This document shows positions 8,997-46,518 of a stretch of 64,000 nucleotides of DNA, piece by piece. The first letter of the stretch is position 1. Every line of letters starts with the position of its first letter. This stretch comes from Escherichia phage vB_Eco_F27. The notes beneath the pieces are model-generated. The model saw only the letters and a list, made by a program, of their open reading frames with translations, was not told the origin of the DNA and searched no databases. A program made the translations under genes and the position numbers. Where the stretch lies: the sequence record OP870146.1; one strand, written 5' to 3'.

Positions 8997-9302
8997 TTAA
9001 TTTTTCCAACTTAACAACTTGTAGTGTCCTTCATTCATACGTGGTTTATCCCAAGAAATACTAATATATGATTCGCTGTCAATAGAAGTCGCCGGGTTTT
9101 TCTCTACCGTAAGACCTTCACTTTCCAGCCATTCAATAGTATTTGCGCATAAATCAGAAGAACACCTAATCGGAAACCGGCAAGATTTTTCACCTTTAGC
9201 TGCAGTGTTATACATCTTTTCTAAAATACGCTTTTGCACGTTTTTAAAAATAGTTTCAGCAGATTCTTCAGATTTTTTATTCAGTTCAGTGTAAAGACTC
9301 AT
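8997..9302 (-). CDS. hypothetical protein, 101 aa
   Basis: ORF track; ATG 9300-9302; leader cataatattctcctcatgtttt is identical to that of CDS 4017-4322. Confidence 0.5.
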   Translation of the reverse strand: MSLYTELNKKSEESAETIFKNVQKRILEKMYNTAAKGEKSCRFPIRCSSDLCANTIEWLESEGLTVEKNPATSIDSESYISISWDKPRMNEGHYKLLSWKN

Positions 9303-9330
9303 AATATTCTCCTCATGTTTTGATAGGTCT

Positions 9331-9358
9331 ATAGTAACACATCTAGGGAAGAAGTAAA
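9331..9358 (-). promoter_or_regulatory. early promoter (-35 TTTACT / -10 TACTAT)
   Basis: Same cassette family. Confidence 0.45.
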
Positions 9359-9411
9359 CAACTTTTTCAGTAAGTTATAAACCCCCTAATGGGGACCGAA
9401 GTCCCCATTCT

Positions 9412-10038
9412 TTACTTACGAGTTTTTGCATATTGAGCAGCGTCAGCAGCCAAACGACCTGCCTGACGAAGTTTTTCTTTAATCGCATCGTGAAGTGGTT
9501 GAGTGTACTTCAAACCTTCGATAGTCAAATAAAGACGATAAAGGTCCGGGGTATCAAGGTTGTTGATATGTTGGCCATTACGAAGAATATTGAATTCACG
9601 AACGAGTGAAGATGTATCGGATTCAATATCACGAACAAGCGAAGATAGTTGTTTATATTTTTTTTCCAGACTAGAAGTATCAAACTTAAGAGCAGGAGCT
9701 TTAGGAGTTGCTTTTACTTCAGGCTTAGGCTCAGGTTTTGCTATTGCTTTAGGGGTCGCAGGTTTAGGAATGGAAGGAGTAGGTTTTACTTTAGGCGAAC
9801 CCGATTTAGCAGAAACACCACCACTAACAATATCTTTGAATGCTTTAGAAGCTCTGTAATATTCTTTTTGGCTGGAAGTGTCGATACCGTACATGGCTTG
9901 AACGTTTTTGAAAAACTCTGTACTAGTTTTTGTACCAGAAATAGCATCGTAAGCAGCTTGCCATTTCTCTTTTGTCATACGTACACCGGCTTCGGTGATT
10001 ACTTCCGTTTCGGCTAAAAATTCATTAAAAGTATACAT
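9412..10038 (-). CDS. internal head protein-like (N-terminus MYTFNEFLAE) with Pro/Lys-rich linker, 208 aa
   Basis: ORF track; ATG 10036-10038; late promoter TATAAATA about 36 nt upstream; PKVKPTPSIPKPATPKAIAKPEPKPEVKATPKAP segment. Confidence 0.5.
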   Translation of the reverse strand: MYTFNEFLAETEVITEAGVRMTKEKWQAAYDAISGTKTSTEFFKNVQAMYGIDTSSQKEYYRASKAFKDIVSGGVSAKSGSPKVKPTPSIPKPATPKAIAKPEPKPEVKATPKAPALKFDTSSLEKKYKQLSSLVRDIESDTSSLVREFNILRNGQHINNLDTPDLYRLYLTIEGLKYTQPLHDAIKEKLRQAGRLAADAAQYAKTRK

Positions 10039-10073
10039 CGATGGTCCTTAGAAAGTAGGTTTATTGTTTACTA

Positions 10074-10081
10074 TATTTATA
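10074..10081 (-). promoter_or_regulatory. late promoter TATAAATA (minus strand)
   Basis: Plus-strand tatttata; T4 late promoter consensus. Confidence 0.55.
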
Positions 10082-10082
10082 C

Positions 10083-10111
10083 AAAAAAGCCCCAACCTTT
10101 CGGAAGGGGCT
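10083..10111 (-). terminator. rho-independent terminator after the RNA gene cluster
   Basis: Minus-strand sense AGCCCCUUCCGAAAGGUUGGGGCU followed by UUUUUU. Confidence 0.65.
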
Positions 10112-10153
10112 ATATACCTTGTCGGGGTTTCCACCTACTAAGGCAAGTGTTTG

Positions 10154-10312
10154 TACGAAACGCCGGGATTCGAACCCGGTTATTGAGTAGTTGACGCTAC
10201 TCAATATTTTTAAAAGGCCATATCTCGACCATATCCGAACGTTCCGTCAAAAACGCTACTCGGCTTACGGCAAAGATATTTCCTCGAATCGATAATTCGG
10301 TGCGCCGTTTCT
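10154..10312 (-). ncRNA. tRNA-like small stable RNA (analogous to T4 rnaC/rnaD species); boundaries approximate
   Basis: 3' end has a canonical T-arm CCGGG-TTCGAAT-CCCGG followed by CGTTTCG, which can pair with GAAACG about 150 nt upstream; internal 8-bp hairpin TTGAGTAG/CTACTCAA; no ORF; sits in the tRNA cluster. Confidence 0.35.
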
Positions 10313-10414
10313 GCTGTGATGTAAGGGGATATTAACAAATCGTAAAGATTTATTAAGACCAGTCCTTACTCAGGGAACATCAGTCCGACGACTTACCGGT
10401 AGCGACCCGGCTTC

Positions 10415-10759
10415 TTATTTTGGCATATCATCAATTTGCTCTCGACGCCGACGCCATAGATTAATCGCTTCATAAACACATTCTGCGTTTGGTATATGAC
10501 GGCAATAATATAATGATTCGCGTTTCTGGAATCGATGTTGCAATGGGATTTCGTTTAAAAGGTCTTTACGGTCAAAGTATTCAAAACTAGTTAACCCGGA
10601 ACGGTTTTTAATGAACTTCCAATGACCAAATTCATTTTGAACATAGATGTAATCTGCATGTTGGTATAACAAATTAATCAATCGGTCTGAAATAACTGTA
10701 TCATGTTCGTTAAAATAAAACGTTAAATCATGAACTACTAAGTAAACATTACCTTTCAT
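10415..10759 (-). CDS. hypothetical protein within the RNA gene cluster, 114 aa
   Basis: ORF track trimmed to ATG 10757-10759 with GAGGAAA SD, 19 nt downstream of tRNA-Arg; no GIY-YIG or HNH motif seen. Confidence 0.45.
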   Translation of the reverse strand: MKGNVYLVVHDLTFYFNEHDTVISDRLINLLYQHADYIYVQNEFGHWKFIKNRSGLTSFEYFDRKDLLNEIPLQHRFQKRESLYYCRHIPNAECVYEAINLWRRRREQIDDMPK

Positions 10760-10777
10760 ATTTTCCTCACTTAAAAT

Positions 10778-10854
<77 letters not shown>

Positions 10855-10954
10855 ATGATGCGGCTTTGGGTGTTTCAGTGTTACTCGTTTGTAGGTTCTA
10901 CTTTTAACCCTTATTCGAACAACTTACCTACCTAAGAGCGTACTCACCGCGAAT

Positions 10955-11029
10955 TGGTGGCCCTGGCTGGTTTCGATCCAGCTACCTATCAGTTATGAGC
11001 TGACAGCTCTCCCATTGAGCTACAGGGCC
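10955..11029 (-). tRNA. tRNA with CAU anticodon (elongator Met, or Ile2 if lysidine-modified), 75 nt, CCA encoded
   Basis: Manual cloverleaf: acceptor GGCCCTG/CAGGGCC, D-arm GCTC-AATGGGA-GAGC, anticodon loop CTCATAA, T-arm GCTGG-ATCGAAA-CCAGC; ends resemble E. coli tRNA-Ile2. Confidence 0.85.
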
Positions 11030-11091
11030 TAAATAAATTTCTATTATGAAAGGCCCTTGAGGGAGCACCTTTGGTAATAGAGGGTAGATTA

Positions 11092-11118
11092 ATAATAACA
11101 CATAATTCTTAAAGCAAA
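11092..11118 (-). promoter_or_regulatory. possible MotA-dependent middle promoter upstream of the tRNA genes
   Basis: Minus-strand sense TTTGCTTTA then 11 nt then TTATTAT. Confidence 0.25.
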
Positions 11119-11125
11119 TTACGTT

Positions 11126-11416
11126 TTACCGTACCATATTAATGTAGTTATATTCAATGCAACGTAATTTCAAAGGGTTCTTGAAAATATCATATTCAAG
11201 AGGGCCTTTTTCTGTTTCAATAAAGAAATCAAAGTTAACTGTGTTAAATTTAACGTCTTCACAGAGTAATTTAACTTGTGAAGATGAACGGTCGATATAA
11301 ACCTTTTCAACCTCAAAGATAGTCAGAATACCGTAGTCATTAACCAGTGCTTTAGCTGCACGTTGGTCGCTTTCATATCCGTTCTCAATGGACGATACTT
11401 TAGCATAAAGAATCAT
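11126..11416 (-). CDS. hypothetical protein, 96 aa
   Basis: ORF track; ATGA overlap with upstream gene. Confidence 0.45.
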   Translation of the reverse strand: MILYAKVSSIENGYESDQRAAKALVNDYGILTIFEVEKVYIDRSSSQVKLLCEDVKFNTVNFDFFIETEKGPLEYDIFKNPLKLRCIEYNYINMVR

Positions 11417-11775
11417 GAATGTTCCACCATTTCAAAGGTATGAGCATCAACAATATGATACCAGTCAAAATTTTCTTCCGCGTTTTTATAAATTTCGCGA
11501 AGAGCTTCAACAGTTTTTCCTGTAGCAACAAGATCGTCAATACCACCAAGAGGATAACAGTAATAACCAGCAAACAGAAGGAAATTAATAGTTTCTGTAG
11601 GTTCTGGATGCAGAACACCGTTATCGTCTACCACTTCAAAGAAAGTGTAAGAAGGAGTACAAGTTTTAATCCAAGCCCATGCTTGAGCTGCTGAATCAAA
11701 TGGTCTGCGTATCAAACGACAATCAGGGTCTTTAGAAGGATTTGCTTCAAAATCCGCATATACGTGATATTTCAT
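11413..11775 (-). CDS. hypothetical protein, 120 aa
   Basis: ORF track trimmed to ATG 11773-11775 with AAGGTGA SD. Confidence 0.5.
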   Translation of the reverse strand: MKYHVYADFEANPSKDPDCRLIRRPFDSAAQAWAWIKTCTPSYTFFEVVDDNGVLHPEPTETINFLLFAGYYCYPLGGIDDLVATGKTVEALREIYKNAEENFDWYHIVDAHTFEMVEHS

Positions 11776-12031: not shown

Positions 12032-12295
12032 TTATTTCAAATATATTGCGTATTTTTTATAGCCACCAGGCTCGTGTCGAAGACCTTTATCATTCGCAAA
12101 ACGTTGAATGTTATTGAACTGATTTTCATCAAGTTCGGATGTGTCAAATATGAAAAAGTTTCGTTTGTTGCCAAGCGTGATATGCGGAGTTAAGTCAATG
12201 TTATACAAATTAAGAATATCAGCAATAACCTGATTGACCGCTTTGTTAATTTTCACACCAGACGATTCTGAGATGAATTCGTTGAAAGTTTTCAT
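12032..12295 (-). CDS. internal head protein-like (N-terminus MKTFNEFISE), 87 aa
   Basis: ORF track trimmed to ATG 12293-12295; CTS-like N-terminus. Confidence 0.45.
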   Translation of the reverse strand: MKTFNEFISESSGVKINKAVNQVIADILNLYNIDLTPHITLGNKRNFFIFDTSELDENQFNNIQRFANDKGLRHEPGGYKKYAIYLK

Positions 12296-12327
12296 TTTAG
12301 GTTCCATTTGGTTGTTTTGATAGGACT

Positions 12328-12356
12328 ACTATAACATAATCCTATCGTGTTGTAAA
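12328..12356 (-). promoter_or_regulatory. early promoter (-35 TTTACA / -10 TATAGT)
   Basis: ATTTACAacacgataggattatgtTATAGT. Confidence 0.5.
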
Positions 12357-12668
12357 TTATTTTATGCCTTTAGAAGAAATGGTGTTTTGGCGTTTGGTCC
12401 CTGTTTGTGAAAAATCGTGGTTATCGATTTGGTCGACTCGCATAACACCAAATGCAGATTTAATTTTAGCCTTTGAACCTTTTTTGATACTAATTATCAT
12501 ATAAGTATCATTTTTCTTATATTCGAAATTTGTTACTTCAACGCCTTGATTAGAAATTGACTTAATAATAGCATTAGCGTATTCATCATCTAACGGACCG
12601 GTGGTGTTAATAATAAAATTTTTATCGGCTTTAGTAGCTTCAGCGATAAACTCTTGATAAGTTTTCAT
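12357..12668 (-). CDS. internal head protein (N-terminus MKTYQEFIAE, identical to the T4 capsid targeting sequence), in the ipI map position, 103 aa
   Basis: ORF track trimmed to ATG 12666-12668; adjacent to 57B as ipI is in T4. Confidence 0.6.
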   Translation of the reverse strand: MKTYQEFIAEATKADKNFIINTTGPLDDEYANAIIKSISNQGVEVTNFEYKKNDTYMIISIKKGSKAKIKSAFGVMRVDQIDNHDFSQTGTKRQNTISSKGIK

Positions 12669-41313: not shown

Positions 41314-41738
41314 TGTATCTTATCCCTGAATCTTATGAATTGGTACTCGAAAATGTCGAAGCACTTATTCCTGAAGCACAGGGCCGAATCGATGCATTGT
41401 CTTCTGCTCTCGATATTGACGATATAAATACTATTATCGAGAACATGCTTGAAACTGAAACGGATTTAGCTGTTGCAATGGCTTCCATTATTAATGAAGA
41501 ACAGTTAAATGAGTTTATCGTTAAACATGTTTCTTCTCGTGGTGAAGTCACCCGCACTAAAGACCGTAAAACTCGTGAACGTAACGCGTTCCAAACCACT
41601 GGTCTTTCTAAAGCAAAACGTAGACAAATCGCTCGTAAGGTCGTTAAAGCTAAAAAAGCTAACCCTTCAGGCCAAGTTAAAGGCTTGCGTAAGCGTAAAA
41701 AGGCTCTTAAACGTCGTAAAGCATTAGGATTAAGCTAA
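41313..41738 (+). CDS. 68: gp68 prohead core protein, 141 aa
   Basis: Position; basic C-terminus. Confidence 0.8.
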
Positions 41739-42379
41739 TGAATAAACCCGAGTTACTTATTGAAACTTGGGGTCAACCCGGTGAGATTATTGATGGCGTT
41801 CCAATGTTGGAATCTCATGATGGAAAAGATTCTGGCTTAAAACCAGGGCTTTATATAGAAGGTATTTTTCTTCAGGCAGAGGTTGTTAACCGAAATAAAC
41901 GTTTATATCCTAAACGCGTTTTGGAAAAAGCAGTAAGTGACTATATTAAAGAACAAGTCGCAACCAAACAAGCCCTTGGAGAATTAAACCATCCACCTCG
42001 TGCAAATGTTGACCCTATGCAAGCCGCTATCATTATTGAAGATATGTGGTGGAAAGGAAACGATGTATATGGACGTGCTAGAATTATTGAAGGCGACCAT
42101 GGTCCCGGTGATAAATTAGCTGCTAATATACGAGCTGGTTGGATTCCAGGTGTTTCCTCTCGTGGTCTTGGTTCTTTAACCGACACCAATAAAGGGTACC
42201 GTATCGTGAACGAAGGATTTAAATTAACCGTCGGCGTAGATGCCGTATGGGGACCTTCTGCTCCAGATGCTTGGGTTACTCCTAAACAAATATCAGAATC
42301 AGAAAATTCGGTGGAAATCACCAAAAACAGTGCTGACGAAGCATTTAAAGCTCTCGCAGAGAGTTTAAAAGCATTATAA
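41738..42379 (+). CDS. 21: gp21 prohead core protein and protease, 213 aa
   Basis: Length and order. Confidence 0.9.
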   Translation: MNKPELLIETWGQPGEIIDGVPMLESHDGKDSGLKPGLYIEGIFLQAEVVNRNKRLYPKRVLEKAVSDYIKEQVATKQALGELNHPPRANVDPMQAAIIIEDMWWKGNDVYGRARIIEGDHGPGDKLAANIRAGWIPGVSSRGLGSLTDTNKGYRIVNEGFKLTVGVDAVWGPSAPDAWVTPKQISESENSVEITKNSADEAFKALAESLKAL

Positions 42380-42412: not shown

Positions 42413-43225
42413 ATGATCAAAGAACAACTTTTGAAAGAAGCTCAGAATATCGAGACTTCAGTTGCTCTTAATAGTGTTTTCGAATCAGTAGAACTGTCTC
42501 CGGACGTTAAAGCTAATTTCAGCACTGTATTCGAAGCCACCGTTAAGCAGGAAGCAGTCAAACTGGCTGAATCTCATATCAAAGCCATCGCCGAAAAGGC
42601 CGAAGAAGAAGTTGAAAAGGCTAAAGAAGATGCTGAAGAGAAAGCTGATAAAAAATTGGCTGAACAAGCTTCTAAATTCCTAGACCATCTTGCAAAAGAA
42701 TGGCTCGCAGAAAACCAAATCGCAGTTGATAAAGGCATTAAAGCTGATTTGTTCGAATCCATGCTTGGTGGTCTGAAAGAACTGTTTGTTGAACATAACG
42801 TTGTTGTTCCAGAAGAATCTGTAGATGTTGTAGCAGAAATGGAAGAAGAGCTGGCCGAACATAAAGAAGAAACCGCTCGTTTGTTCGAAGAAGTTACCAA
42901 ACGTGATGCATATATCAATTACGTTCAGCGTGAAACCGCTATTAATGAAAGCGTAAAAGACCTGACTGAATCTCAGAAAGAAAAAGTTATTGGCCTGGTT
43001 GAAGGTATGGATTATTCTGACGCATTTGGTACTAAGTTAACTGCTATTGTAGAAATGGTTAAAGGTTCTACTAAAGAAGAAGCCGCTATTACCGAAAGTA
43101 TAAATACAGTTGACAATGACGCTGCCGGTCTTAATTTTGTTGCCGAAGCAGTTGACACTACCACAACTCAGGTAGAACAGAATTCTAATGTAAGTTTATA
43201 TGCGAAAGTCGCATCTCGTTTCTAA
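42413..43225 (+). CDS. 22: gp22 prohead core scaffold protein, 270 aa
   Basis: Acidic coiled-coil; length as T4 gp22. Confidence 0.9.
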   Translation: MIKEQLLKEAQNIETSVALNSVFESVELSPDVKANFSTVFEATVKQEAVKLAESHIKAIAEKAEEEVEKAKEDAEEKADKKLAEQASKFLDHLAKEWLAENQIAVDKGIKADLFESMLGGLKELFVEHNVVVPEESVDVVAEMEEELAEHKEETARLFEEVTKRDAYINYVQRETAINESVKDLTESQKEKVIGLVEGMDYSDAFGTKLTAIVEMVKGSTKEEAAITESINTVDNDAAGLNFVAEAVDTTTTQVEQNSNVSLYAKVASRF

Positions 43226-43242: not shown

Positions 43243-44811
43243 ATGACTACTATCAAAACTAAAGCTCAGCTCGTAGACAAATGGAAAGAACTGCTGGAAG
43301 GTGAAGGCCTGCCGGAAATCGCTAATAGCAAGCAGGCTATTATCGCTAAAATCTTCGAAAACCAGGAAAAAGATTTCGAAGTATCCCCTGAATATAAAGA
43401 CGAGAAAATCGCTCAGGCATTTGGTTCTTTCTTGACCGAAGCTGAAATTGGTGGTGACCATGGTTATAATGCTCAGAACATCGCAGCAGGTCAAACCTCT
43501 GGTGCAGTAACCCAAATTGGGCCGGCAGTTATGGGTATGGTTCGTCGTGCTATTCCTAATCTGATCGCTTTTGATATTTGTGGTGTTCAGCCTATGAACA
43601 GCCCGACCGGTCAGGTATTTGCTCTCCGTGCAGTATATGGTAAAGACCCTATCGCTGCTGGCGCTAAAGAAGCTTTCCATCCGATGTATGCTCCAGATGC
43701 GATGTTCTCTGGTCAGGGTGCTGCTAAGAAATTCCCAGCTCTGGCTGCTGACACTACTACTGTTGTAGGTGATATCTATACTCACTTCTTCCAAGAAACT
43801 GGTACTGTATATCTGCAAGCTTCTGCTGTCGTAACACTTGATTCTGGTGCAACTGACGCATCTAAATTAGATGCCGAAGTTAAGAAACAAATGGAAGCTG
43901 GTGCACTGGTAGAAATCGCTGAAGGTATGGCTACTTCTATCGCTGAACTCCAGGAAGGTTTCAACGGTTCTACCGATAACCCATGGAATGAAATGGGCTT
44001 CCGTATCGATAAACAAGTTATCGAAGCTAAATCTCGCCAGCTGAAAGCTGCTTACTCTATCGAATTAGCACAAGACCTCCGTGCAGTACACGGTATGGAT
44101 GCTGATGCTGAACTGAGCGGTATTCTGGCTACAGAAATTATGCTAGAAATCAACCGTGAAGTTGTTGATTGGATTAACTACTCTGCACAGGTTGGTAAAT
44201 CTGGTATGACCCTGACTCCGGGTTCTAAAGCTGGTGTATTTGACTTCCAGGACCCGATTGATATCCGTGGTGCTCGTTGGGCCGGTGAAAGCTTTAAATC
44301 TCTGTTGTTCCAGATTGATAAAGAAGCAGTTGAAATTGCTCGTCAAACCGGTCGTGGTGAAGGTAACTTCATTATCGCTTCCCGTAACGTAGTTAACGTA
44401 CTGGCTTCAGTTGATACTGGTATTTCTTACGCTGCACAGGGCCTGGCTTCTGGTTTTAATACCGACACTACTAAGTCTGTATTTGCCGGTGTACTTGGTG
44501 GTAAATACCGCGTATACATCGACCAGTATGCTAAACAGGATTACTTCACCGTTGGTTACAAAGGCGCTAACGAAATGGATGCAGGTATTTACTATGCTCC
44601 TTACGTTGCACTTACCCCACTGCGTGGTTCCGATCCTAAGAACTTCCAGCCGGTAATGGGCTTTAAAACTCGTTACGGTATCGGTGTTAACCCGTTTGCT
44701 GAAAGTTCCCTGCAGGCTCCAGGTGCTCGCATCCAGTCCGGTATGCCGTCTATCCTGAACAGCCTTGGTAAGAACGCTTACTTCCGCCGTGTATATGTAA
44801 AAGGCATCTAA
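43243..44811 (+). CDS. 23: gp23 major capsid protein, 522 aa
   Basis: Length and order; high-expression codon usage. Confidence 0.93.
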   Translation: MTTIKTKAQLVDKWKELLEGEGLPEIANSKQAIIAKIFENQEKDFEVSPEYKDEKIAQAFGSFLTEAEIGGDHGYNAQNIAAGQTSGAVTQIGPAVMGMVRRAIPNLIAFDICGVQPMNSPTGQVFALRAVYGKDPIAAGAKEAFHPMYAPDAMFSGQGAAKKFPALAADTTTVVGDIYTHFFQETGTVYLQASAVVTLDSGATDASKLDAEVKKQMEAGALVEIAEGMATSIAELQEGFNGSTDNPWNEMGFRIDKQVIEAKSRQLKAAYSIELAQDLRAVHGMDADAELSGILATEIMLEINREVVDWINYSAQVGKSGMTLTPGSKAGVFDFQDPIDIRGARWAGESFKSLLFQIDKEAVEIARQTGRGEGNFIIASRNVVNVLASVDTGISYAAQGLASGFNTDTTKSVFAGVLGGKYRVYIDQYAKQDYFTVGYKGANEMDAGIYYAPYVALTPLRGSDPKNFQPVMGFKTRYGIGVNPFAESSLQAPGARIQSGMPSILNSLGKNAYFRRVYVKGI

Positions 44812-45234: not shown

Positions 45235-46518
45235 ATGAGTAAAATCCAAAAATTATTGCGTGAATCTACAACGTCTACTAGCAACTCAATCGGTCGCCCA
45301 AATCTCGTTGCTTTGACTCGCGCTACGACTAAATTAATATATTCTGACATTGTAGCAACACAAAGAACTAATCAACCTGTTGCTGCTTTTTATGGTATCA
45401 AATATCTTAACCCAGACAACGAATTAACATTTAAAACTGGTGCTACTTATGCAGGCGAAGCTGGATATGTAGACCGAGAAAAAATTACCGAACTCACAGA
45501 AGAATCAAAAGTCACATTAAATAAAGGCGATTTTTTCAAATATAATAATATCGTCTATAAAGTGTTAGAAGATGCACCATTTGCAGATATTCAAGAAAGT
45601 GATCTAGAATTAGCTCTTCAGATTGCGGTCGTTCATTTAAAGGTACGGTTATTTTCGGATGCAGCGGTAACAAGCAAATTTGAAAGCTCTGGTAGCGAAA
45701 TTTCTGATGCAAGATTCCAGATTAATAAATGGCAAACTTCAGTCAAATCTCGTAAACTTAAAACCGGCCTCACGGTTGAATTAGCGCAAGATTTGGAAGC
45801 AAATGGATTTGATGCCCCTAACTTCTTAGAAGATTTGCTTGCTACTGAAATGGCTGATGAAATTAATAAAGATATTCTTCAGTCTTTAATTACTGTATCG
45901 AAACGTTATAAAGTTACTGGAATTACTGACACTGGATTTATTGACTTGAGCTATGCGTCTGCTCCAGAAGCAGGCCGTTCGTTATACCGAATGGTATGTG
46001 AAATGGTTTCGCATATCCAAAAAGAGTCAACTTATACTGCAACGTTTTGCGTAGCTTCAGCTCGTGCAGCTGCTATTCTTGCTGCTTCTGGTTGGTTAAA
46101 ACATAAGCCAGAAGATGACAAGTATCTTTCACAAAATGCTTATGGATTCTTGGCAAATGGATTACCTCTTTACTGCGATACCAACAGTCCGTTAGATTAT
46201 GTTATTGTGGGTGTTGTAGAAAATATCGGTGAAAAAGAAATTGTAGGGTCCATCTTTTATGCTCCATACACTGAAGGAGTAGATTTAGATGACCCGGAAC
46301 ATGTTGGTGCTTTTAAAGTTGTAGTTGATCCAGAAAGCTTGCAACCGTCTATCGGATTATTGGTTAGATATGCTTTATCAGCAAATCCTTACACAGTAGC
46401 AAAAGACGAAAAAGAAGCGAGAATAATTGATGGCGGGGACATGGATAAAATGGCAGGACGTTCAGACTTGTCTGTTTTACTCGGTGTTAAATTGCCTAAA
46501 ATTATTATAGATGAATAA
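45235..46518 (+). CDS. 24: gp24 head vertex protein, 427 aa
   Basis: Same length as T4 gp24; gp23-like fold expected. Confidence 0.9.
   Translation: MSKIQKLLRESTTSTSNSIGRPNLVALTRATTKLIYSDIVATQRTNQPVAAFYGIKYLNPDNELTFKTGATYAGEAGYVDREKITELTEESKVTLNKGDFFKYNNIVYKVLEDAPFADIQESDLELALQIAVVHLKVRLFSDAAVTSKFESSGSEISDARFQINKWQTSVKSRKLKTGLTVELAQDLEANGFDAPNFLEDLLATEMADEINKDILQSLITVSKRYKVTGITDTGFIDLSYASAPEAGRSLYRMVCEMVSHIQKESTYTATFCVASARAAAILAASGWLKHKPEDDKYLSQNAYGFLANGLPLYCDTNSPLDYVIVGVVENIGEKEIVGSIFYAPYTEGVDLDDPEHVGAFKVVVDPESLQPSIGLLVRYALSANPYTVAKDEKEARIIDGGDMDKMAGRSDLSVLLGVKLPKIIIDE

Follow-up and report, generated by a model that had tools for sequence, protein, structure and literature searches.

Here, we describe a gene in a 64,000-nucleotide (nt) stretch of DNA from vB_Eco_F27, a T4-like coliphage of the genus Mosigvirus (the whole of this stretch is referred to as the window). 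The gene lies on the minus strand at 9412-10038 and encodes a 208-amino-acid (aa) protein that is likely to be a T4-type internal head (ejection) protein. A reading in which the product bears a capsid targeting sequence (CTS), would be expressed late and would be packaged in the head is strongly supported by its motifs, by their conservation and by the presence of the corresponding protease and scaffold genes in the same genome. A preliminary description of the window had called the product a large, basic, probably DNA-associated protein with a CTS-like start and a flexible linker, encoded by a gene with a late promoter and a terminator hairpin. The open reading frame (ORF) is as it described, with an ATG start and an N-terminus reading MYTFNEFLAE, and "large" is apt, since at 208 aa it exceeds the five other CTS-type ORFs of the window (86-132 aa).

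The residues that make a CTS work have been mapped in T4 by mutagenesis of IPIII, where residues 4 and 7 proved to be the main determinants of targeting, and residues 8 and 10 those of processing, with the prohead protease gp21 cleaving after Glu in L/I-x-E (PMC9026906). All four mapped positions carry a fitting residue in the 208-aa protein: F4, F7, L8 and E10, where an aromatic residue is expected at 4 and 7, L or I at 8 and E at 10. T4 IPIII and IPII begin with MKTYQEFIAE, and IPI begins with MKTFKEFTSTTTPVSTITE/A (here and below, a slash marks a cleavage point). Of the 590 ORFs of the window that start with ATG and encode at least 40 aa, six match the pattern M-x-x-[FYW]-x-x-[FWY]-[LI]-x-E, against 0.055 expected. 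As far as this motif can tell, the resemblance to a CTS is not due to chance. All six matches are on the minus strand, with three by the lysozyme/denV region (463-1637), two after 57B (12032-12668) and the 208-aa gene as the sixth. The other five ORFs (463-861, 926-1186, 1356-1637, 12032-12295 and 12357-12668), of which one or more begin with MKTYQEFIAE, belong in four cases to PHROGs annotated "internal head protein". The fifth, a 132-aa ORF at 463-861, falls in PHROG 15461 ("unknown function") and is a further, unlabelled candidate for an internal protein.

Conservation was followed in an alignment of 12 sequences from eight genera, and loci were compared from seven genera besides Mosigvirus, including Dhakavirus (JS98), Winklervirus (CHI14), Kanagawavirus (305 and IME523), Tegunavirus (fHe-Yen9-01), Karamvirus (PG7) and Marfavirus. 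An aromatic residue stands at position 4, and [LI]-x-E at positions 8-10, in 11 of the 12 sequences; the twelfth has the motif one residue earlier (with [LI]-x-E at 7-9). F7 is nearly invariant. Fully invariant (12/12) is E16 of a second site, [ILV]-x-E/A or S. In the shortest versions of the protein (CHI14 and EcS1), the two sites are merged into a ten-residue CTS, MLKFKEFISE/A, which is the T4 layout. With the four mapped positions occupied as expected, kept across genera and found in the window far more often than predicted, the CTS-like N-terminus claimed in the preliminary description is borne out.

The distribution of cleavage motifs points in the same direction. L/I-x-E occurs three times in the 208-aa protein, with two of these sites in residues 1-16, versus 15 such sites in the gp22 scaffold, and having few sites that mostly lie in the propeptide is the pattern of a retained internal protein rather than that of a degraded core protein. 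Both the gp21 protease and the gp22 scaffold are encoded alongside the gene in the same genome. On these sequence grounds, we consider it very likely that the protein is packaged and N-terminally processed.

The second line of evidence concerns expression. The preliminary description had also placed a late promoter ahead of the gene, and this promoter stands: an exact TATAAATA is found on the gene's strand, in the intergenic DNA upstream of the ATG. In the window as a whole, TATAAATA occurs 19 times against 8.0 +/- 3.1 expected from shuffled sequences. Conservation of the promoter is stronger evidence than this count, as the ATAAATA core is invariant upstream of orthologues in the eight genera, in flanking intergenic DNA that averages 50% column identity, and it recurs upstream of the second allele of the gene (described below). 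All of this is promoter context read from DNA, as no transcriptome of any family member was found. In most of the eight genera, a hairpin precedes the ATAAATA core. In the window, this hairpin is the intrinsic terminator of the upstream tRNA/rnaD/rnaC unit, which folds at -16 kcal/mol (z = -3.35), carries a terminator annotation in phage G2469 (99% identical) and also precedes the RB69-type allele.

At the other end of the gene, the claim of a terminator hairpin holds in part. The hairpin itself is real and directly follows the stop codon, and hairpins are found downstream in seven of the eight genera. On the gene's strand, it is followed by AGGGGGUUUAU instead of a U-run, so that it counts as a 3′ stem-loop, not as an intrinsic terminator of the textbook kind; the upstream hairpin at 10111-10088 is the one with the canonical form. 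A generic promoter and terminator scan listed neither of these minus-strand hairpins as a terminator, and both were assessed by folding instead. A sigma-70-like promoter for the next gene (TTGTTTAC...TACTAT) comes after the 3′ stem-loop. The sequence GTTTAC, resembling the -35 element of an early promoter for that next gene, recurs after the 3′ hairpin in the window (9303-9411) and in the loci of five relatives, IME523 included. Promoter/stem-loop cassettes have reportedly been proposed as mediators of modular shuffling in T4-like phages, and the hairpin-plus-promoter junction recalls them. By these signals, the gene reads as a self-contained, hairpin-bounded late unit inside an early-transcribed region.

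This arrangement sets the gene apart from the other CTS ORFs. In the 120 nt upstream of the six, a late promoter is found directly upstream of the 208-aa gene only. Sigma-70-like early promoters (GTTTAC, N17, then TATAAT, TATAGT or TACTAT) precede the ORFs at 463-861, 12032-12295 and 12357-12668, and the remaining two have no xATAAATA within 120 nt upstream. Judged by their promoters, the internal proteins of this phage thus appear to be split between expression classes.

The predicted architecture of the protein consists of a propeptide and two helical domains (of ~7 and ~10.5 kDa) joined by a linker. An AlphaFold2 model built from a shallow nine-sequence alignment (mean predicted local distance difference test score, pLDDT, of 70.8) leaves residues 1-18 unstructured, places three helices of the N-terminal domain within residues 23-72 (pLDDT 77-86) and shows a low-confidence, disordered segment at residues 74-112 (pLDDT 34-51). 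Identity across genera is 19-83% in the N-terminal domain. The C-terminal domain is 64-77% identical in six genera and is replaced by an unrelated domain in IME523 and P0023.

The linker is rich in proline (26%), lysine (21%) and alanine (17%) over residues 76-117 and includes SPKV, TPKA and KPxP units. The low-complexity Pro/Lys tract of roughly 40 residues that the preliminary description had seen is therefore there, measuring 34 residues as a tract (PKVKPTPSIPKPATPKAIAKPEPKPEVKATPKAP, residues 82-115) and 42 by composition. Tandem Repeats Finder, run on the gene, found no DNA-level repeat beneath it. Across genera, the linkers show 21-33% identity (they are effectively unalignable) and range from 22 to 51 residues, and they are always rich in P, K and A. 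Those of 16 family members are all net positive (+3 to +9), with 126 lysines versus four arginines; outside its linker, the 208-aa protein has 16 lysines and nine arginines. Within the species, substitutions and indels (+PK, -IA) cluster in this segment. Low pLDDT, variable sequence and length, and a composition that is kept together support the claim of a flexible linker. "Basic" is equally justified, as the predicted mature protein starting at A17 has a mass of 21.3 kDa, an isoelectric point (pI) of 9.79 and a net charge of +14, near the values of mature T4 IPIII (IPIII*; pI 9.65, +10). Association with DNA is something we infer from this charge and from the lysine bias. Solid-state nuclear magnetic resonance of T4 heads revealed that lysines are the only residues of the internal proteins to touch DNA phosphates (PMC3012670), and a linker with lysine as its only basic residue is therefore suggestive of DNA contact, which we put forward as possible.

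The gene belongs to PHROG 2280 ("unknown function"; E = 1.9e-57, residues 1-203 against positions 1-178 of the 178-position profile). Over the 901 bases around it, the best match is Escherichia phage vB_EcoM_G2469 with 99.3% identity, followed by records at 97.8-99.2%, other Mosigvirus mar005p1 isolates among them. Homologues were found by tblastn in 138 phage records, and identity to the window protein ranges from 31 to 70% across the eight genera. Wherever tRNA and e.x genes are annotated in the fetched loci, the gene comes after the tRNA block and ahead of e.8/e.6. T4 itself has no member of the family, and its position between rnaC and e.8 is empty. RB69 carries a second allele at the same position, in which ORF149c (MKTYAEFLTE...) and ORF148c overlap and represent one gene split by a frameshift. 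This split gene is located at 73428-73990 of record NC_004928, and both a pseudogene and a sequencing error would explain it. Joined, the two ORFs encode a protein of 187 aa that 164 other records, mostly Tequatrovirus (e.g. gp131 of ECML-134), carry intact; it too falls in PHROG 2280 (E = 6e-37). The two alleles align over their full length (hhalign probability 91%, E = 9.5e-7, ~28% identity) and bring the family to ~300 phage records. They share the CTS, the succession of N-terminal domain, K/P linker and helical C-terminal domain, the locus, and the upstream terminator followed by the ATAAATA core (in RB69 and ECML-134 within AATAAATA). The linker of the RB69 type is short, with 24 residues and a net charge of +3 compared with 42 residues and +7 in the window protein. 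Going by this fixed placement, the site between rnaC and e.8 is a third locus of the ip type.

Domains of the protein have been exchanged as units. IME523 (1501-2127 of its fetched locus) and P0023 keep the CTS, the N-terminal domain and the K/P/A linker next to their unrelated C-terminal domain. Conversely, P0025, P0027 and gp153 of fHe-Yen9-01 keep the linker and the C-terminal domain and have a different N-terminal domain, so that the linker persists even where its flanking domains are exchanged. In fHe-Yen9-01, two members, gp154 and gp153, stand in tandem; gp153 (2080-2616 of the fetched locus) begins with MLEYSEFLKE. When 1.84 billion cluster representatives were searched exhaustively with a sequence profile, only 13 clusters matched; they consist entirely of phage members of this family, and no distant characterised relative was reached. 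Absence from T4, the depth of the split between the two alleles, the frameshift in the RB69 reference, the swapped domains and the tandem paralogue mark an accessory gene, and presence/absence, allele divergence, domain swaps and paralogy would fit a gene caught in an arms race.

Taken as an internal head protein, the product could act as follows. Late in infection, the gene would be expressed as a short transcript of its own, running from the gp55-type late promoter behind the tRNA/rnaD/rnaC terminator to the 3′ stem-loop. During prohead assembly, MYTFNEFLAE would act as the CTS and dock the precursor on the gp22 scaffolding core, after which gp21 would cut behind Glu at L-A-E10 and/or I-T-E16, removing 10-16 residues. 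The mature protein (~21 kDa, pI 9.8, +14) would then be retained in the head among the packaged DNA, arranged like beads on a string, with two small helical domains on an extended, Lys-rich and Arg-free linker of ~40 residues that could run along the DNA phosphates via its lysines. Ejection together with the DNA is reasonably likely, as judged by analogy with T4: the tethered two-domain shape could traverse the portal and tail channel with the DNA and without unfolding, extending an argument made for mature IPI (IPI*; PMC3012670). In the host, the protein would most likely act immediately against a defence that attacks incoming modified DNA. The T4 proteins Ip1, Ip2 and Ip3 are each a specific inhibitor of a GmrSD-type (type IV) restriction enzyme (PMC12373910; PMC9391042). 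Their recent identification as specific injected inhibitors (PMC12373910) makes uncharacterised CTS proteins prime anti-defence candidates. For the 208-aa protein, an anti-defence role is a tentative proposal.

Several points weigh against this picture. A search of the literature on Mosigvirus, JS98, fHe-Yen9-01, CHI14/LC53 and Kosakonia phage 305 found no virion proteome or transcriptome that covers any member, and in the literature searched the family was not found described as an internal protein (two papers were outside the search, and an earlier mention is possible). All GenBank records examined label the members "hypothetical", in line with the "unknown function" of the PHROG. The lysine density of ~21% is modest, and Pro/Ala/Lys spacers are also known as inert tethers. 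The regulation differs from that of the five other CTS genes, which lack a late promoter directly upstream and in three cases have an early-type one. The family is better conserved than the hypervariable classic ip genes and holds a fixed position, which would fit a housekeeping or assembly role too. Lastly, the predicted helical domains are without an informative structural relative, so the model offers no functional clue.

An assembly role is, in fact, the first alternative. Here, the CTS would bring the protein to the scaffold, where the helical domains would aid assembly of the gp22 core or control of head size, and the Lys-rich tract would mainly serve as a counter-ion for packaged DNA, with no specific host target; gp67, gp68 and, in part, IPIII are precedents. 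The domains are predicted to be all-helical and coiled-coil-like, the protein is net cationic and Lys-biased, and T4 IPIII mutants build heads at half the rate and give polyheads (PMC9026906). A fixed genomic position, conservation above that of typical ip genes and a dedicated late promoter, as in structural genes and unlike the five other CTS genes of the window, would suit such a role as well. Nevertheless, we regard it as unlikely. T4 and many Tequatroviruses form normal heads without the gene and the RB69 reference carries a frameshifted copy, which makes the gene dispensable; the exchange of whole N- or C-terminal domains between genera is hard to square with a conserved partner such as gp22; and internal L/I-x-E sites are very few in comparison with core proteins.

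Less probable still, to a degree that makes it a poor alternative, is that the protein is made late, stays in the cytoplasm and is never packaged, its CTS likeness being a relic of recombination among ip cassettes or an unrelated conserved N-terminal helix. The literature search gave no experimental virion association for any member and annotators have left all of them hypothetical, as such a protein would lead one to expect. Against this stand the specificity of the motif in the window (six versus 0.055 expected, with four of the five others in internal-head-protein PHROGs) and the fact that the conserved residues are exactly those for targeting and cleavage, adjacent positions being variable. 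Moreover, ten CTS residues are enough in T4 to package green fluorescent protein, beta-galactosidase and nucleases (PMC9026906), so that packaging is what one would expect for any protein with this tag when its phage encodes gp21 and gp22. An envelope-spanning or periplasmic tether with a TonB-like Pro-rich spacer, acting in lysis, superinfection exclusion or adsorption, is highly improbable: the TonB proline-rich spacer is the sole family-library match outside PHROGs (NCBIfam NF008084, E = 0.0045, residues 80-121), but its score of 16.9 bits lies far below the curated cut-off (315) and only the low-complexity tract is covered, so that the match was rejected as compositional and TonB family membership with it; the CTS at the N-terminus is acidic and amphipathic, neither a signal peptide nor a hydrophobic anchor is present, a Pfam search found no TonB C-terminal or other domain, and the spacer is net cationic, unlike the charge-balanced EP/KP block of TonB.

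Table 1. The gene for the candidate internal head protein, its parts and signals, and head-assembly genes of the same window. Coordinates are window positions; a slash in a sequence marks a candidate cut.
Feature	Coordinates	Strand	Basis and remarks
Coding sequence of the 208-aa precursor (23.2 kDa, PHROG 2280)	9412..10038	-	ORF listing; ATG start, begins MYTFNEFLAE
Propeptide and CTS, residues 1-16 (MYTFNEFLAE/TEVITE/A)	9991..10038	-	Candidate gp21 sites L-A-E10 and I-T-E16
N-terminal helical domain, residues 17-75	9814..9990	-	Conserved ERMTK-x-KW and YGIDTSSQKEYY; AlphaFold helices 23-31, 39-50, 57-72
Pro/Lys/Ala-rich cationic linker, residues 76-117	9688..9813	-	Composition; 9 K, 0 R, 2 E, net +7
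C-terminal helical hairpin / three-helix domain, residues 118-208	9415..9687	-	AlphaFold helices 122-153, 164-177, 180-206; pLDDT 82-89
Shine-Dalgarno AAGGA, 6 nt before the ATG	10045..10049	-	Sequence inspection; GGA kept in the upstream-region alignment
T4-type late promoter TATAAATA (gp55/gp33-dependent class)	10074..10081	-	Exact match, 35 nt upstream of the ATG
Intrinsic terminator of the upstream tRNA/rnaD/rnaC unit	10082..10111	-	GC-rich hairpin 10111-10088; U6 run 10087-10082 abutting the late promoter
3′ stem-loop right after the stop codon (9409-9388)	9388..9409	-	9-bp stem, UUCG loop; fold -15.5 kcal/mol
gp21 prohead serine protease	41738..42379	+	Pfam Peptidase_S77, E = 2.9e-107; expected remover of the propeptide
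gp22 scaffolding core protein	42413..43225	+	Pfam T4_CASP, E = 1.5e-89; expected CTS target
gp23	43243-44811		Head-assembly gene
gp24	45235-46518		Head-assembly gene

The order of genes on the minus strand matches the T4 map: 4, 2, 3, 1, 57A, 57B, an ipI-type locus, trna.4-.2, tRNA-Met, tRNA-Arg and rnaD/rnaC. Downstream of the 208-aa gene follow frd.3, e.6 and e.5. The minus-strand stretch at 10125-10420 is ~95% identical to T4 rnaD plus rnaC (the species 2 and species 1 stable RNAs, which come after tRNA-Arg in T4). Rfam, searched over 9000-11500, matched only the two tRNAs and had no model that hits this stretch. GenBank records of relatives place small "hypothetical protein" coding sequences over it (such as the 129-bp G2469_00144), corresponding to the window ORFs at 10210-10338 and 10061-10204; these calls are probably spurious. 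Between tRNA-Arg (10778-10854) and the rnaD homologue lies a 345-bp minus-strand ORF (~10416-10760), at a point where tRNA-Arg abuts rnaD in T4. This ORF is called hypothetical in G2469, moskry, Mizar and RB69 (ORF150c).

If the gene indeed encodes an internal head protein, what it adds is a family and not a principle. CTS-bearing internal proteins are textbook T4 biology, and the family itself is unannotated and uncharacterised in the literature searched; the protein may reasonably be put forward as a candidate anti-defence factor, but it implies no new mechanism and changes no concept. Nonetheless, ~300 sequenced genomes of Straboviridae, spread over at least nine genera and including many therapeutic-candidate coliphages, carry a member of the family, at a locus that lies outside the count of classical ip loci. 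Treating the family as one that is probably packaged would correct its annotation and provide a defined candidate for host-range and anti-defence screens. A natural cargo with two domains and a linker could also inform CTS-based protein delivery in engineered T4 capsids. A bolder reading, which we rate as improbable, is that PHROG 2280 is a modular, "DNA-riding" effector platform, in which the constant parts would be the CTS and a Lys-only polycationic Pro/Ala/Lys tether, the tether binding the packaged DNA and dragging the protein through the tail. If so, the N- and C-terminal domains would be interchangeable warheads, swapped between genera against different first-response host defences. The protein would then be a two-headed, DNA-tethered anti-defence protein, unlike the compact single-domain IPI*, and the post-rnaC locus would be a new anti-defence hotspot.

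Comparison with known proteins beyond the CTS gave little. In Pfam, the only match was to SIX1_SD, below threshold at 12.5 bits. A sequence profile search of the PDB returned nothing at E <= 1, and Foldseek returned nothing below E = 2 against the PDB and, against BFVD at E <= 0.001, only an unnamed entry (64% identity) and an uncharacterised homologue from fHe-Yen9-01. For the linker, the C-terminal domain of histone H1 and the C-terminal repeats of bacterial AlgP and HupB are Lys/Ala/Pro-rich DNA-binding tails with a higher lysine density. Like the TonB spacer, they share with the linker a low-complexity, proline-punctuated sequence, a likeness that bears on how the linker behaves and not on family membership.

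The closest comparison is with T4 IPIII, whose CTS is identical to that of the window protein at positions 1, 3, 6, 7, 9 and 10 and conservatively substituted at 4 and 8 (MKTYQEFIAE versus MYTFNEFLAE). The precursors are of similar length (193 and 208 aa), as are the mature proteins in mass (20.4 kDa for IPIII* compared with 21.3 kDa), and both are products of dispensable accessory genes in phages with gp21 and gp22. Homology past the CTS was rejected, as BLASTP aligns residues 1-26 only (E = 0.001), and the mature regions of IPII and IPI, compared by eye from their translations, showed no similarity to the window protein outside the propeptide. The comparison with IPIII and IPII that the preliminary description had proposed therefore holds for the first ~26 residues and fails for the mature regions, which makes the protein an analogue of IPIII and not a homologue. 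IPIII also differs in having no Pro/Lys linker, in its locus (ipIII adjoins e and ipII, whereas the window gene stands directly after rnaC and before e.8/e.6) and in having a demonstrated target, GmrSD of ECOR17 (PMC12373910).

T4 IPI, an injected anti-restriction protein from the same group of phages (PMC3012670), resembles the window protein in another respect. Its 19-residue propeptide is likewise in two parts and ends in I-T-E/A, the same second site as I-T-E16/A here. The ipI locus lies after 57B, unlike that of the window gene, and IPI* is a compact 76-residue alpha/beta fold (PMC3012670), in contrast to the two predicted helical domains and disordered linker of the window protein.

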